A DNA stretch of 64,000 nucleotides from NCBI GenBank assembly GCA_049325595.1, contig JBMOLF010000015.1, forward strand, positions 96,001 to 160,000, read 5' to 3'. This DNA is from Candidatus Babelota bacterium. GTDB lineage: Bacteria; Babelota; Babeliae; Babelales; Vermiphilaceae. Positions 39,001 to 42,000 of this stretch are shown here, piece by piece. The position numbers are program-made. How positions within the stretch are numbered: the stretch's first letter is position 1; each line of letters opens with the position of its first letter.

Positions 39001-42000
39001 GTTTTCAGGGTTGGTAACTGCTTGACGTTTTGCTAAGGTACCTACCAAACGTTTGCCATCTTTGGTAAATGCAACGATAGAAGGGGTTGTATTTGAACCA
39101 TCTTTATTAGGAATAACTTTCGGGGTACCACCTTCCATGAAGGCTACTACCGAGTTGGTTGTTCCTAAATCTATGCCAATTATTTTTGCCATGGATTTAG
39201 CCCTTTAGTTTTATAGTTGGTTTTCGTTAAAAATATTTGATTTTAATAATCTCATAAAATCCCTATAAATTATAGATAAAACATACCCCCTCTGTCAAAC
39301 AAATACTAAAAAAATCTTAGTCTTTTACACTAAGCTTTTATATAAATAAAAATTTAACTTTTAACCTGAATAAATTTATGTAAATTTTTTCTATGTTCGA
39401 TAATGTTTCACACAGGCATAAATAATTATAAGCGTCGCATAACGAAAGTATTCTGTAACAATATTCGATCGACGCACTTGATTGACCTGTTTTTTTTCTG
39501 ATTTTGTTTGCGCGATTTGAGCCCTTATTTATAAGGTTTTTAGGAGTAATTGATTCGCGCGGCGCGCGACAGGGCACTCCGTCTGCACCCCTCAGCCCAT
39601 TTTGTGGGTAGGGAAGGGGGGCTTACGGGGATTTGACTCCGTTAAAAACAGGAAGCAGGAGGAAGAAGAGGAAAGCGAGGGGGAAAGGATTAAAAATAGG
39701 GGAAAGAAAGGATGGGGGAGAAAATAAGGGAGGAATAAATAAAAGAGATAGGTTAGGTGTAGAGGTATAAGTAATAAGAATAATAGACACCTGTATATAA
39801 GCACATGGCATGACTTAGCTAAAAGATAAATAAATATGATGTATGATGTAGGAATTAAAACTATATAGCATTAAAACAAAGTAAAAACTTACTTATATAA
39901 AAAGTATACAAGAGAATAAGATATGAGAGATAAGAGAAAGAGAATATGCATGATATATAGACTTAGAATATATAGGGTGAAGATAAATAGAAATCTAAAG
40001 ATTAAGAAATAAGAGCAAAGTCAAAAACTAAGACTAAGAATACTCGCTAAAGACATAACTAGTACTAAGATTAAACAAAGAAGAAGAGTAATAAACAATA
40101 AGCAAAACTAACCGATAAGAAATAAACAATAATAAAGCAAACTAATAAGATAACCAAGAAGAACAAGAAGCTCTATAAATTTATGGAGCAAAAGAAGAAC
40201 TTAAGCAAGAAGGCAAATACCAATAAGAAATCTACTGATTATTATTAGAAGAGTATAACTAGCTAATACTAAAAAAAGACGTAGTTAGAAAAGAAGAAGG
40301 GTGATAAGAATAAGAAGAAGAAGAAAAGGAATATATCTTATTAAAATACCGTTAAGAGGAAGATCAAAAACTCCACATCGCATGAAAAGAACAGTAAGAC
40401 AATATCTTCACACGAACCAATCAAACGTTGCGCAATAATTTGAGCCAAAATAACCAATAGATACGCTATTTTTTCTCATTTAATAGTTTTATTTGTTAAA
40501 AAAATAAGTAGTCCAATATATTTTTTTTTACATTATATTTTTAGATGAAAATCATACTTATCATATTATTTAAAAAATAACCTAAAAGGGGAAAGACGGC
40601 GCGGCTGGTTCTTATAATCATTTTTTATTATCACTATCTCCTGCCATTTAACCTTTTTAGTAGCAAGCCACATTATTACCATGCTTACTAATCTCACCGT
40701 TTGAATCGCCACTAATGCAAATAACAACCCTGTTTTTGCAACGATCACTACTACAATAGCTGCCCCATACCCTAGCCCGTATACAATATATGAAGTAATT
40801 AATTCTTTATAACGCCCTTGCACTTCAAGTATACGCTCATAAGGTAATAATAATGATTCTGCTATGTAAGAACAAATTAAAATAAGTAACGGAACAAAAA
40901 ATTGATTATCAAAAATATACGGCAAACAAATAAGCAATAACATTAATAACATAATAAGAGGTATAGTTAACAACATGACCTTTCTTTTTAGGTGAATAAC
41001 CGACTTATTAAAAAAGTTTTGTTCTCCTAACTCATTAGCATATGAGAGAAATGCTGTATCAGCTGATCCAAGAGATTTTACTACTATCCGGTAACAGGCG
41101 AGCGCGGCGTCATTAGTTATTTTGTAAAGAGTGGCACTTTCTATTCCTAGCGTGGCGGCAAAAAAAGGTAATAAAAAGTTTCGCTCGCTCAAGCTTTTTA
41201 AAATGGTAGTAACGCCCATTATGCCTGTATGCTTGGTAAATGAATTTTCAATTGTTGGTGAACCAACAAACGGTACTTGCTGGACTATAAACCTCTTGAG
41301 ATTAATTCCTGTTATTAAAACGGCCATACCTGTGGTTAATAATTTGACCATTAACAGTTTCTCAAGAGTTAAACAAGTAAATGCTATATAACTAATACCG
41401 AGTATTTCGATGGCAGTTACGAGTATTAAAACACAATTGAACTGTTTATTTAAAAAATAGGCGTGAGAAATATTTTGAAGTAAAAAAACAATTCCCTGAG
41501 CTATAAATAGCGTTAAATATAAAATTATTTGGGTGGCTGAAAAATAAGGAAACAAGAATCGATGAAAAAAGAAGATTCCTAAACTCGCTACACCTAGCAG
41601 AGCTAATTGAAAATAAATAATTTTCTTAATAAGGCTATGCGATTGCTGTAGTAATGATAAGGCAAATCGGGCAATTGATTTTTTTAGACCACAATCAAGC
41701 CACAAGAGAATAAGATATAACAATGCCAGGCTATGCGACCATTGATAGAAAATAAAAGTATCGCCGCAATAATATACACAATAAGAACTGAGCAGTTGCG
41801 CAATCTTGGTGCATGAAAAAAGAAGTGCGTTCCAGGTAAGAGCTGAAGTAAATGAAGAAAAAAGATGTGCTGATTTCATAGTGACTGCGTAGGTTATGTA
41901 TAAGAATCATTGTACTATAATGCCAAATAGTTGCTCAGAACGATAGCTATTTGTTATGGTTAGCATAATTTGTGGTGTTTCACTTAAGGAATATAATGAA

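Follow-up and report, generated by a model that had tools for sequence, protein, structure and literature searches.

Upstream of dnaK we describe a core hairpin of 68 nt, located at positions 39575–39642 (minus strand) of the window, which is the whole stretch of 64,000 nucleotides analyzed and whose position 1 corresponds to position 96,001 of the contig carrying it (C15). The stem of this hairpin is structured and covaries, its sequence is conserved, it is present in a single copy, the parts that accompany it are collinear, and dnaK has a promoter and an operator that are independent of it. Tentatively, we take the hairpin to be the structured center of a non-coding RNA module that is present once per genome and lies on the dnaK strand. 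Such a module would be transcribed from that strand, would probably bind a protein and would have some function, all of which we infer.

Hairpin, covariation and distribution

The GC-rich island at positions 39575–39642, which on the minus strand reads ACGGAGTC...GACGGAGTG, has a G+C content of 0.52–0.60, against 0.17–0.34 in its flanks. Its core hairpin comprises a 5' strand ACGGAGUC (positions 39635–39642; family consensus A-C-G-N-A-G-U-C), a 3' strand GACGGAGUG (39575–39583) and, between the two, a variable C-rich/G-rich stem capped by a C-rich apical loop; across loci, the hairpin measures 66–138 nt. At its base, two all-purine 3x3 internal loops, GNA/GGA and then RAG/GAR, are stacked with the 3-bp helix GUC/GAC between them. 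The genome-wide survey's note had described an invariant GGA/GGA loop, which is true of the 3' side (GGA in 64 of the 65 aligned rows) but overstated for the 5' side, where the G and the A are each found in 65/65 rows and the base between them is variable (G 30, U 18, A 16, C 1).

When a 121-nt stretch was compared with its shuffles, the minus-strand fold gave a z value of −2.49, with 1 of 200 shuffles equally good, and the plus-strand fold was weaker (z −1.60; 12 of 200). In nine of 13 family sequences, the minimum-energy structure is the closed one; that of this genome's own sequence leaves the closing loop open.

The covariation claimed earlier for the element is real. In the alignment of 65 rows, which was fitted to the model and so favors the structure, 88.9% of the cells are paired, vs. 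66.4% in shuffles, and double changes amount to 272 cells, vs. 79 in shuffles and 28–70 in slid controls; no shuffle out of 500 reached that number, in a test that is inflated by kinship among the sequences. Such double changes are present at 20 of the 21 pairs. Unaided, RNAalifold predicted the central 10-pair stem alone, with compensatory changes at all 10 pairs, and not the closing helices. With respect to the latter, G-C to A-U changes were found in L024, L028, L035, and L065, C-G to U-A changes in L060/L068, and changes in both helices in L064; those between the 5' and the 3' strand occur in family f4, L060/L068, and L064 (f-numbers denote families, L-numbers loci, and g44 a group of several species). 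The closing GNA/GGA loop counts only three or four compensatory events, and one pair of the closing helices is non-standard in 6/65 rows, the outermost pair in 23/65. Thus, the proposed closure by two conserved strands has compensatory changes in its favor, but they are few, RNAalifold does not predict it and the fold of this genome's sequence is open there.

Regarding the strand, G-U and U-G cells together number 48, vs. 19 A-C and C-A cells, when the 65 rows are read on the dnaK strand, and the conserved loops are purine-rich on this strand only. Fold energy does not settle the matter, because it is lower for the forward strand in 38 of the 65 loci and for the reverse strand in 27 (p = 0.30).

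In agreement with the note, the element matches no Rfam family: searches against Rfam 15 returned five weak rows at E ≤ 10 between positions 39000 and 40700, none of which overlaps 39567–39648. The element is single in this genome, where the covariance models match only at this place. Matches by blastn at E ≤ 0.01 confirmed it in genomes of the family, in 13 of 80 and not in the 14 of 80 reported. The model searches were carried out on 151 genomes from 18 families, all belonging to a single order, which does not bear out the scope previously given as phylum-wide. An independent model built on 11 sequences (R2) reproduced the distribution stated by the note, with one match per genome in 60/151 genomes and 8/18 families, and a model built on 65 sequences (R3) matched 76/151 genomes, again once each, in 10/18 families. 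Unfiltered R3 searches at E < 0.001 on 40 dnaK-upstream loci of genomes that had given no match found the element in families f12 (4/4), f6 (2/2), f13 (1/1), f5 (4/5), and f1 (2/5) and, at that threshold and in those loci, did not find it in f8 (0/12), f7 (0/4), f11 (0/2), or f16 (0/2), which brings the family total to at least 13 of 18. To look for the element outside the order, 185,579 species genomes were scanned with an exact pattern, which catches one subtype of the element only. It matched 12 stretches, nine of them strong model matches (54–89 bits) in genomes that, judged by their titles and the place of the match, are of Babeliales type or mislabelled relatives. The remaining three, scoring 18–23 bits, showed no fold (z 0.53, −1.40, and 0.32) and fit chance, given that about two matches were expected by our own estimate.

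The dnaK gene and its own control

The dnaK gene, identified by its match to the HSP70 family, occupies positions 37309–39192 of the minus strand and starts about 380 nt after the element. Between the two lies, as the note had indicated, a promoter with 12/12 consensus positions (TTGACA-18-TATAAT, 39269–39298, minus strand). Promoter-like sites of at least 10/12 ending 49–125 nt before the ATG were found in 36 of the 53 loci having a dnaK start. Abutting the −35 hexamer, an inverted repeat CTTAGT-N7-ACTAAG with a third half-site TTAGT (39305–39334, minus strand) resembles a HAIR operator; it is a feature separate from the element, about 240 nt downstream of it. Similar repeats are present 30–220 nt before the dnaK start in 74/92 loci, vs. 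0.009 expected per searched interval, including families in which the element was not found (f8, 12/12; f7, 4/4).

A MerR-type repressor similar to HspR is encoded beside htpX in this genome, with a score of 97.1 bits against a cut-off of 105, by far the best family match, and HspR-like matches were obtained in 61/61 sampled genomes (89–106 bits against the same cut-off). The published HAIR consensus is CTTGAGT-N7-ACTCAAG (PMC6102357). The dnaK repeat and the HspR-like protein agree with this system in the placement of the repeat next to the −35 box and in the presence of the repressor, but the dnaK half-site frequently lacks one base relative to the consensus and the proteins fall just under the curated cut-off. 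As judged by sequence, the putative HspR/HAIR regulon site is found at the dnaK promoter and not at the element.

The single sigma factor and the lack of HrcA stated by the note were also found, with one Sigma70_r2 match and no match to PF01628 (HrcA) in this genome. The suggested tie of the element to chaperone control is not supported: dnaK has its own promoter, HAIR-like operator and HspR-like repressor, and the element persists apart from dnaK. Although dnaK lies downstream on the same strand in 52/65 loci, the distance ranges from 243 to 629 nt, which is wider than the 300–500 nt given before, and in 12/65 loci there is no dnaK within about 1.5 kb. In nine of these 12, dnaK is found 2.2–6.7 kb beyond, in the same orientation, and inserted genes separate it from the conserved box downstream of the hairpin (see below). 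The synteny holds in that the element precedes dnaK in the same orientation, but the two are separable, and hairpin and box stay together where one to five genes part them from dnaK. The module thus appears to be functionally separate from dnaK, whose sigma-70 promoter sits under an HspR/HAIR-type operator at which binding is predicted.

Flanking parts and alternative readings

Directly 5' of the hairpin there is an extreme polypyrimidine tract (39638–39783, minus strand; C 51, G 5, U 70, A 20), the core of a longer asymmetric tract at 39644–40438. Nowhere else in the 1.29-Mb genome does one strand reach 85% purine over 120 nt. Pyrimidines make up at least 65% of the 150 nt preceding the hairpin in 33/65 loci, vs. 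0/65 in the control, and the tract carries TCCTTAT repeats, the complement of the usual ribosome-binding site of this genome. Immediately after the 3' strand, folding gives a short GC hairpin (UCGCGC-GCC-GCGCGA, 39555–39569, minus strand) with no T-run following it; a GC-rich stretch is present after the element in most relatives. A boxA-like flank was also observed, confined to one genus.

It is conceivable, with a chance that we regard as modest, that these parts form a cis element of a transcript reading through from the upstream membrane-protein gene, in which the C-rich, G-poor tract would load Rho; as part of this joint reading, and with an equally modest chance, the hairpin would be a pause, a processing site or a stabilizing end, and the two together would shield the tightly repressed dnaK promoter from read-through. 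The upstream gene, of 437 aa, has a homologue upstream on the same strand in 14/65 loci, no terminator-like site was found in the 1.37-kb spacer, Rho is encoded in the genome, the composition of the tract over its 146 nt is unique, and in 64/65 loci the 150 nt before the element contain no promoter-like site (at least 10/12). Against this, pause, processing or Rho sites do not as a rule retain invariant loop bases across an order, the pyrimidine content of the tract is under 60% in 23/65 loci, L013 has a terminator-like hairpin and T-run directly next to the 5' strand, and the conserved box far downstream is left without explanation.

That box, here GTTATGCGAC (39434–39443, minus strand) and with an 11-nt consensus ATTATGCGACA, is conserved among the 65 loci. 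In the 400 nt that follow the hairpin on its strand, it is present with at most one mismatch in 49/65 loci and with at most two in 61/65, vs. 0/65 and 2–5/65 in three controls, and in 61/65 loci it is found 43–370 nt downstream of the hairpin. It occurs once at this locus, and it is not enriched in the genome, since only five exact 9-mers were found.

Another reading is that the element acts as DNA, with its two direct repeats, its inverted repeat and the box being protein sites, for instance at a recombination or insertion hot spot in which the box would be an attachment-type core, a possibility that we judge quite unlikely. Several observations agree with it: neither strand is favored by fold energy; the box is duplicated in nine loci, with copies 53–1044 nt apart sharing only about 12–20 nt; genes have been inserted between box and dnaK in at least nine genomes; a TTAACATAA arm 7 nt before the box in the f10 loci resembles a two-arm, Xer-type layout; and the genome has three tyrosine recombinase genes. 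However, the compensatory changes and the excess of G-U pairs indicate a folded single strand, the left arm is absent from many loci, including that of the same-genus relative L023, and two flanking boxes accompany only some of the insertions. Nor is the box dif. The dif site of XerC/D consists of two 11-bp arms and a 6-bp center, one per chromosome, at the replication terminus; a better candidate, matching a short pattern of dif sites (ATAA-N6-TTATGTNAA), lies 40 kb away at C15:~175,989, at the GC-skew switch, and the left arm of the box exists only in some lineages, where 7 bp separate the two arms.

The 3' strand of the hairpin can also, in some lineages, pair with a complement further downstream, as the 5' half of an alternative helix; where this complement is present, the alternative helix is by far the stabler compared with the closing helices. 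The element could be a conformational switch or leader, in which a ligand or protein would decide between the platform formed by the two purine loops and this helix and so control the downstream genes, although we consider this improbable. A perfect complement of 13–18 bp is found in g44, L006, L013, L054, L100, and L092, and the alternative helix is part of the minimum-energy fold in five of seven g44 stretches, the remaining part of it being found in a sixth, which is cut 10 nt short. The extensions of the helix differ among the g44 species, yet they stay complementary (GGGGCC/GGCCCC, GCCGGG/CCCGGC, GCUG/CAGC, and UUCCU/AGGAA), and in L049 a GAC to GGC change in the 3' strand is matched in its downstream complement. 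On the other side, duplexes of −24 kcal/mol or lower are limited to 9/65 loci, those of −18 kcal/mol or lower to 15/65, vs. 4–5 in controls, no T-run follows the helix, the own promoter of dnaK lies downstream, and the downstream genes vary where insertions have happened.

Finally, it is highly improbable that the opposite strand is the functional one, giving a purine-rich RNA in which numerous AAGGA motifs, similar to ribosome-binding sites, follow the hairpin: read on that strand, the box resembles a −10 hexamer ([C/G/T]ATAAT), the TCCTTAT repeats complement the ribosome-binding site and the reverse fold is better in 27 loci, but column counts show no −35-like consensus at the right spacing, on that strand the conserved loops become pyrimidine-pyrimidine mismatches and the 48 G-U cells A-C mismatches, and CsrA was not found in this genome.

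Comparison with known RNAs and meaning

It must be noted that a number of known identities were tried and rejected. The signal recognition particle (SRP) RNA model RF00169 matches at C23:6728-6820 with 53.4 bits, above the cut-off, and not at the element, and RNase P RNA and tmRNA were both located elsewhere in the genome. The 6S RNA forms a rod some 180 nt long, in which the 5' and 3' ends close the structure around a large central bubble. Its model RF00013 gave no match at E ≤ 1 genome-wide or at E ≤ 10 at the element, in searches whose sensitivity was such that 6S RNA was found in only 5 of 14 control genomes and was not located in this one; moreover, the architecture is wrong, the 5' flank being U-rich and the 3' flank GC-rich, without pairing between them. 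A terminating riboswitch or attenuator, the mark of which is an intrinsic terminator of hairpin and T-run in competition with the conserved fold, was discarded, given that terminator-like sites lie within 110 nt after the element in 3/65 loci, vs. 7/65 on the reverse complement, and a competing helix in only 9–15/65. CsrA is the known reader of repeated GGA motifs, but a sponge of the CsrB/RsmZ type, which carries many such motifs in its hairpin loops, does not agree with the lack of a PF02599 match in this 95%-complete genome or with the presence of only two GGA motifs, both in the internal loop. Kink-turns show a bulge of three bases and, next to it, G-A and A-G pairs in tandem; inspection of the alignment showed both loops to be symmetric 3x3, with no bulge. 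CIRCE is an inverted repeat with a 9-bp spacer, read by HrcA at chaperone promoters; PF01628 had no match, and the element is located about 380 nt before the dnaK start, upstream of the promoter.

Other roles for the box were likewise rejected. The oriC region has clustered TTWTNCACA boxes at the GC-skew minimum, and a DnaA box or oriC at the box or tract was excluded because the skew switches at ~155–175 kb of the contig and not at 135 kb, the box occurs once at the locus and no cluster of boxes was found; the distance between element and dnaA was 82 kb here and ranged from 29 to 129 kb in five closed genomes. As a regulon operator, the box was discarded because four of the five exact 9-mers are located within ORFs or away from any chaperone gene, and as a forward sigma-70 promoter because the −35-like TTAACA/TTGACA located 9–11 nt before it in some loci leaves no spacing that gives a −10. 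Its pairing with the GUCGC after the 3' strand is not followed by covariation of the box variants, its use as the start of a small ORF is contradicted by variants in which ATG is replaced by ATC or ATA, and a complement of the 11-nt box at a start codon (C15:~180,768) belongs to an ORF of merely 16 codons.

With respect to known classes, the element is like the orphan intergenic RNA motifs of the Rfam kind, known from comparative genomics, in its short covarying hairpin, invariant loop bases, narrow taxonomic range and fixed neighborhood, and differs from them in having no Rfam match, in being strictly single-copy and in its genome-unique polypyrimidine tract and separate 11-nt box. The RAT antiterminator hairpins are bound by CAT-domain dimers of the LicT/SacY type. 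Similarly, the quasi-symmetric internal loops of the element would suit a symmetric dimer and its 3' part can join a downstream helix, but there is no sequence likeness or T-run terminator, and the alternative helix exists in some lineages only. Domain IV of the SRP RNA, which is bound by Ffh through internal loops of non-canonical purine pairs, is also a long hairpin with conserved purine-rich loops near one end and one copy per genome; the loop sequences of the element differ from it, there is no apical loop of the GNRA type, and the true SRP RNA lies at the C23 locus indicated above.

Taken as a non-coding RNA module, the element would consist, from 5' to 3', of a G-poor, C/U-rich unpaired leader, the hairpin, a variable GC-rich stretch and the 11-nt box. 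The nearly twofold-symmetric platform of purine loops under a freely varying stem would most likely dock a protein, plausibly a dimer, and the box could be a second recognition site, used by a protein or in base pairing. The 3' strand of the platform may, in roughly one fifth of the lineages, form a perfect helix with its downstream complement, by which the platform would be switched off. Such a module has against it that the 150 nt before the element are free of promoter-like sites in 64/65 loci, that terminator-like hairpins follow it in only 3/65, and that neither Hfq (61 genomes) nor CsrA (this genome) was found as a candidate partner. Beyond this, we regard as unlikely, although worth stating, that the module specifies a new regulatory RNA or ribonucleoprotein acting as a global post-transcriptional regulator of an undescribed kind, whose parts would be a leader with UCCUUAU motifs that resemble anti-ribosome-binding sites, a switchable dimer-docking platform and an 11-nt single-stranded seed. 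In this regard, the order appears to lack Hfq, not found in the 61 genomes searched, and CsrA, as judged from this genome.

The Babeliales are obligate intracellular bacteria of protists which have hardly been studied at the RNA level, and neither their non-coding RNAs nor their heat-shock control is treated in any paper that our literature search turned up. The tract, the box, the alternative helix, the separability from dnaK and the own control of this gene are new with respect to the earlier note. The idea of an RNA replacing missing heat-shock regulators falls, because the order has what is predicted to be a conventional HspR/HAIR circuit at dnaK, which is a useful annotation in itself. 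Single-copy in at least 13/18 families and with invariant loop bases, the element behaves like an essential RNA gene, and it matches nothing known; its coordinates, its model and its wider anatomy of tract, hairpin, alternative helix and box make it a defined experimental target.

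Locus and distribution of the conserved hairpin

The element was located on the minus strand, in a 1.37-kb spacer between a gene for a 437-aa membrane protein without a Pfam family (window 40566-41879, minus) and dnaK (window 37309-39192, minus). It consisted of 68 nt (window 39575-39642, minus), starting with ACGGAGTC and ending with GACGGAGTG, with a C-rich 5' arm, a G-rich 3' arm and a GC content of 0.52-0.60 versus 0.17-0.34 in its surroundings. Folding of a 121-nt stretch gave a z of −2.49 on the minus strand (1 of 200 shuffles equally good) and a weaker fold on the plus strand (z −1.60; 12 of 200). 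No Rfam row overlapped the element at E<=10 and a single copy was found in this genome, both in agreement with the genome-wide survey's note. Known RNAs were discarded: the SRP RNA, the RNase P RNA and the tmRNA are each located elsewhere in the genome, and the element has neither the closing stem nor the central bubble of 6S RNA, which RF00013 did not locate in this genome.

Of 80 genomes from the family searched by blastn with a 121-nt query (E<=0.01), 13 contained the element. A seed model of six sequences from one genus was used to align 11 sequences, and the resulting covariance model, R2, matched exactly once in each of 60 out of 151 genomes, belonging to 8 of 18 families. These are the numbers given in the survey's note, here obtained with an independently built model, including the one match per positive genome. 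All R2 matches were fetched and 65 were aligned to build a further model, R3, which gave one match each in 76 of the 151 genomes and in 10 of 18 families. Since the large searches were strictly filtered, the 1.1 kb upstream of dnaK in 40 genomes lacking a match were searched unfiltered. At E<0.001 the element was present in families f12 (4/4), f6 (2/2), f13 (1/1), f5 (4/5) and f1 (2/5), with weak matches in f3 and f15, while it did not show up in these regions in f8 (0/12), f7 (0/4), f11 (0/2) and f16 (0/2). Taken together, these searches place the element in at least 13 of 18 families, while at least four gave no match. The wide spread previously claimed across the phylum thus stands for one order, to which all 151 sampled genomes belong. 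When 185,579 species genomes were scanned for the exact pattern, nine strong matches of Babeliales type were obtained, and elsewhere just three non-folding ones, at chance level.

Structure and covariation

In the 65-row alignment, which is fitted to the model, 88.9% of cells were paired versus 66.4% in shuffles, and double changes occurred in 20 of 21 pairs. Cells with double changes numbered 272 versus 79 in shuffles, none of 500 reaching 272, and 28-70 with a slid partner. RNAalifold, in its own prediction, recovered a central stem of 10 pairs, each of which showed compensatory changes.

Support is weaker at the base of the hairpin than in the central stem. In the model, a 3x3 loop is enclosed by two helices, AC pairing with GU and GUC with GAC. 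Its 3' side is GGA in 64 of 65 rows, and its 5' side is G-N-A (N being G in 30, U in 18, A in 16 and C in 1 of the 65 rows), so that the invariant GGA/GGA loop described in the survey's note has to be amended. Few events support these closing helices: in four f4 sequences G-C became A-U, the two copies not changing in parallel, which argues for pairing rather than for repeats read alike; C-G became U-A in loci L060 and L068; L064 carries changes in both helices; and some sequences of the genus g44 have a U-G wobble. Several observations speak against these helices: non-standard pairing occurs at one pair in 6 of the 65 rows and at the outermost pair in 23, RNAalifold did not predict them, and they are not formed in the minimum-energy fold of this genome's own sequence, while they are in 9 of 13 family sequences. 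A second loop made of purines, in which AAG or GAG usually faces GAA or GAG, lies above the GUC/GAC helix; the apical part measures 7-81 nt and is rich in C (C 538, G 227).

Features accompanying the hairpin

Our preferred reading, held tentatively, is that of a module of non-coding RNA encoded on the dnaK strand. Three further features accompany the hairpin: a polypyrimidine tract, a downstream box and an alternative helix.

The core of the tract lies directly 5' of the hairpin (window 39638-39783), within a longer polypurine/polypyrimidine tract (window 39638-40438), and is the sole place in the 1.29-Mb genome where one strand reaches 85% purine or more across 120 nt. Pyrimidines made up at least 65% of the 150 nt preceding the hairpin in 33 of 65 loci, and at least 70% in 22, versus 0 of 65 in the downstream control, with 2247 C versus 1038 G over all loci. 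The tract often comprises short repetitive units centred on TCCTTAT, which is complementary to ATAAGGA, the ribosome-binding site usual in this genome, and therefore the tract on the dnaK strand is full of anti-ribosome-binding-site-like sequences. No promoter was recognised upstream of the element and no canonical terminator after it (terminator-like sites in 3 of 65 loci; control, 7 of 65). In L013, the 5' conserved strand starts immediately after a terminator-like hairpin and its T-run, leaving no room for a promoter there. Rho is encoded in this genome, while no Hfq was found in 61 genomes nor CsrA in this one. The nearest alternative is that a read-through transcript carries a cis-acting element for insulation, processing or Rho loading, although we consider it rather unlikely.

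The box (consensus ATTATGCGACA; here GTTATGCGAC, window 39434-39443) is found 43-370 nt downstream of the hairpin on the same strand. With up to one mismatch the 11-mer was present in 49 of 65 loci versus 0 of 65 in three controls, and with up to two in 61 versus 2-5; it was not enriched genome-wide. The box is duplicated in nine loci, in several of them with copies 53-370 nt apart, and in L133 two boxes in direct order flank about 1 kb with two small secreted-protein genes. In the region about 25 nt before the box of five f10 loci (L060, L068, L073, L037 and L047), a conserved TTAACATAA occurs, separated from the box by 7 nt, a two-arm layout similar to a Xer-type site which many other lineages lack. 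A DNA-level site would be consistent with that layout, but it is improbable. The box was discarded as dif, and the locus as an origin or terminus of replication, given that the GC-skew switch and a dif-like site are 20-40 kb away. This dif-like site, of the ATAA-N6-TTATGTAAAA type, is at the switch and outside the window (C15:~175,962-175,989, C15 being the contig JBMOLF010000015.1). Two Xer-like recombinase genes are found at C15:160.7 and 170.0 kb, and dnaA at C15:217.4 kb, about 41 kb from the dif-like site, an odd position if the switch is the terminus.

A perfect complement of the 3' strand, 13-18 bp long, is found downstream in some lineages and is directly followed by the box; when the alternative helix between the two is formed, the closing helices cannot form. 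The duplex reached −24 kcal/mol or lower in 9 of 65 loci and −18 kcal/mol or lower in 15 (controls, 4-5), and was also found in L100 and L092. In g44 it was the minimum-energy fold in 5 of 7 folded stretches; a sixth, 10 nt short, still formed the remaining part, and the seventh, L062, had none. Its extension varies among g44 species yet stays complementary. A switch or leader would make use of such a helix; this reading is quite improbable.

Regarding the strand, G-U plus U-G cells were 48 versus 19 for A-C plus C-A, and the purine-rich loops arise only on the dnaK strand, which is likely the functional one; fold energies (lower in forward for 38 and in reverse for 27 of 65 loci; p = 0.30) did not discriminate. 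An RNA of the opposite strand is highly improbable.

Relation to dnaK and proposed role of the module

In 52 of 65 loci dnaK started 243-629 nt downstream of the element, on the same strand, and in one the distance was 1437 nt. In nine of the other 12 it was 2.2-6.7 kb further along that strand and separated from the box by 1-5 genes (GTPase-like in two loci, small secreted or membrane proteins elsewhere), and in two more there was a contig end or dnaK was on another contig. A hot spot for insertions separates the box from the dnaK promoter, as the regions between element and dnaK in 12 relatives show (L122-L133; 1-5 genes, 2.2-6.7 kb). As genes are inserted there with hairpin and box kept, these two stay together and the distance to dnaK is free.

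The dnaK gene itself appears, from its upstream sequence, to be under its own control. The 12/12 promoter reported between the element and dnaK was recovered as TTGACA-18-TATAAT (window 39298-39269, minus), and sites of at least 10/12 ending 49-125 nt before the ATG were present in 36 of 53 loci, ten of them perfect. Adjoining the −35 hexamer is a putative operator, CTTAGT-N7-ACTAAG (window 39334-39316; 39305-39334 with a third half-site), which resembles HAIR, the HspR operator, given as CTTGAGT-N7-ACTCAAG in PMC6102357. Such a repeat occurred 30-220 nt before dnaK in 74 of 92 loci (0.009 expected per window), also in families without the element. A MerR gene (window 12903-13376, minus; 157 aa) matched HspR with 97.1 bits against a cut-off of 105, no other family being near this score, and all 61 genomes sampled from the order had matches of 89-106 bits. 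With the htpX-like protease gene directly downstream (window 12042-12893, minus) it forms a probable heat-shock operon. The survey's premise of one sigma factor and no HrcA held, with one Sigma70_r2 match and no HrcA match in this 95%-complete genome; the lineage does not, however, lack a heat-shock regulator, as an HspR-like protein is encoded. No paper was found that links HspR or dnaK to the name of the phylum or the order, and the records listed in our literature search included none on a non-coding RNA of this phylum.

The module would represent an orphan structured RNA motif without a matching Rfam family, whose transcription, strand, partner and function we infer. As non-coding RNA of the dnaK strand, it may act through its purine-loop platform, invariant and nearly twofold-symmetric, which forms the base of a stem that varies freely and would dock a protein. 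A second recognition site would be provided by the box and, in some lineages, the alternative helix could turn the platform off.
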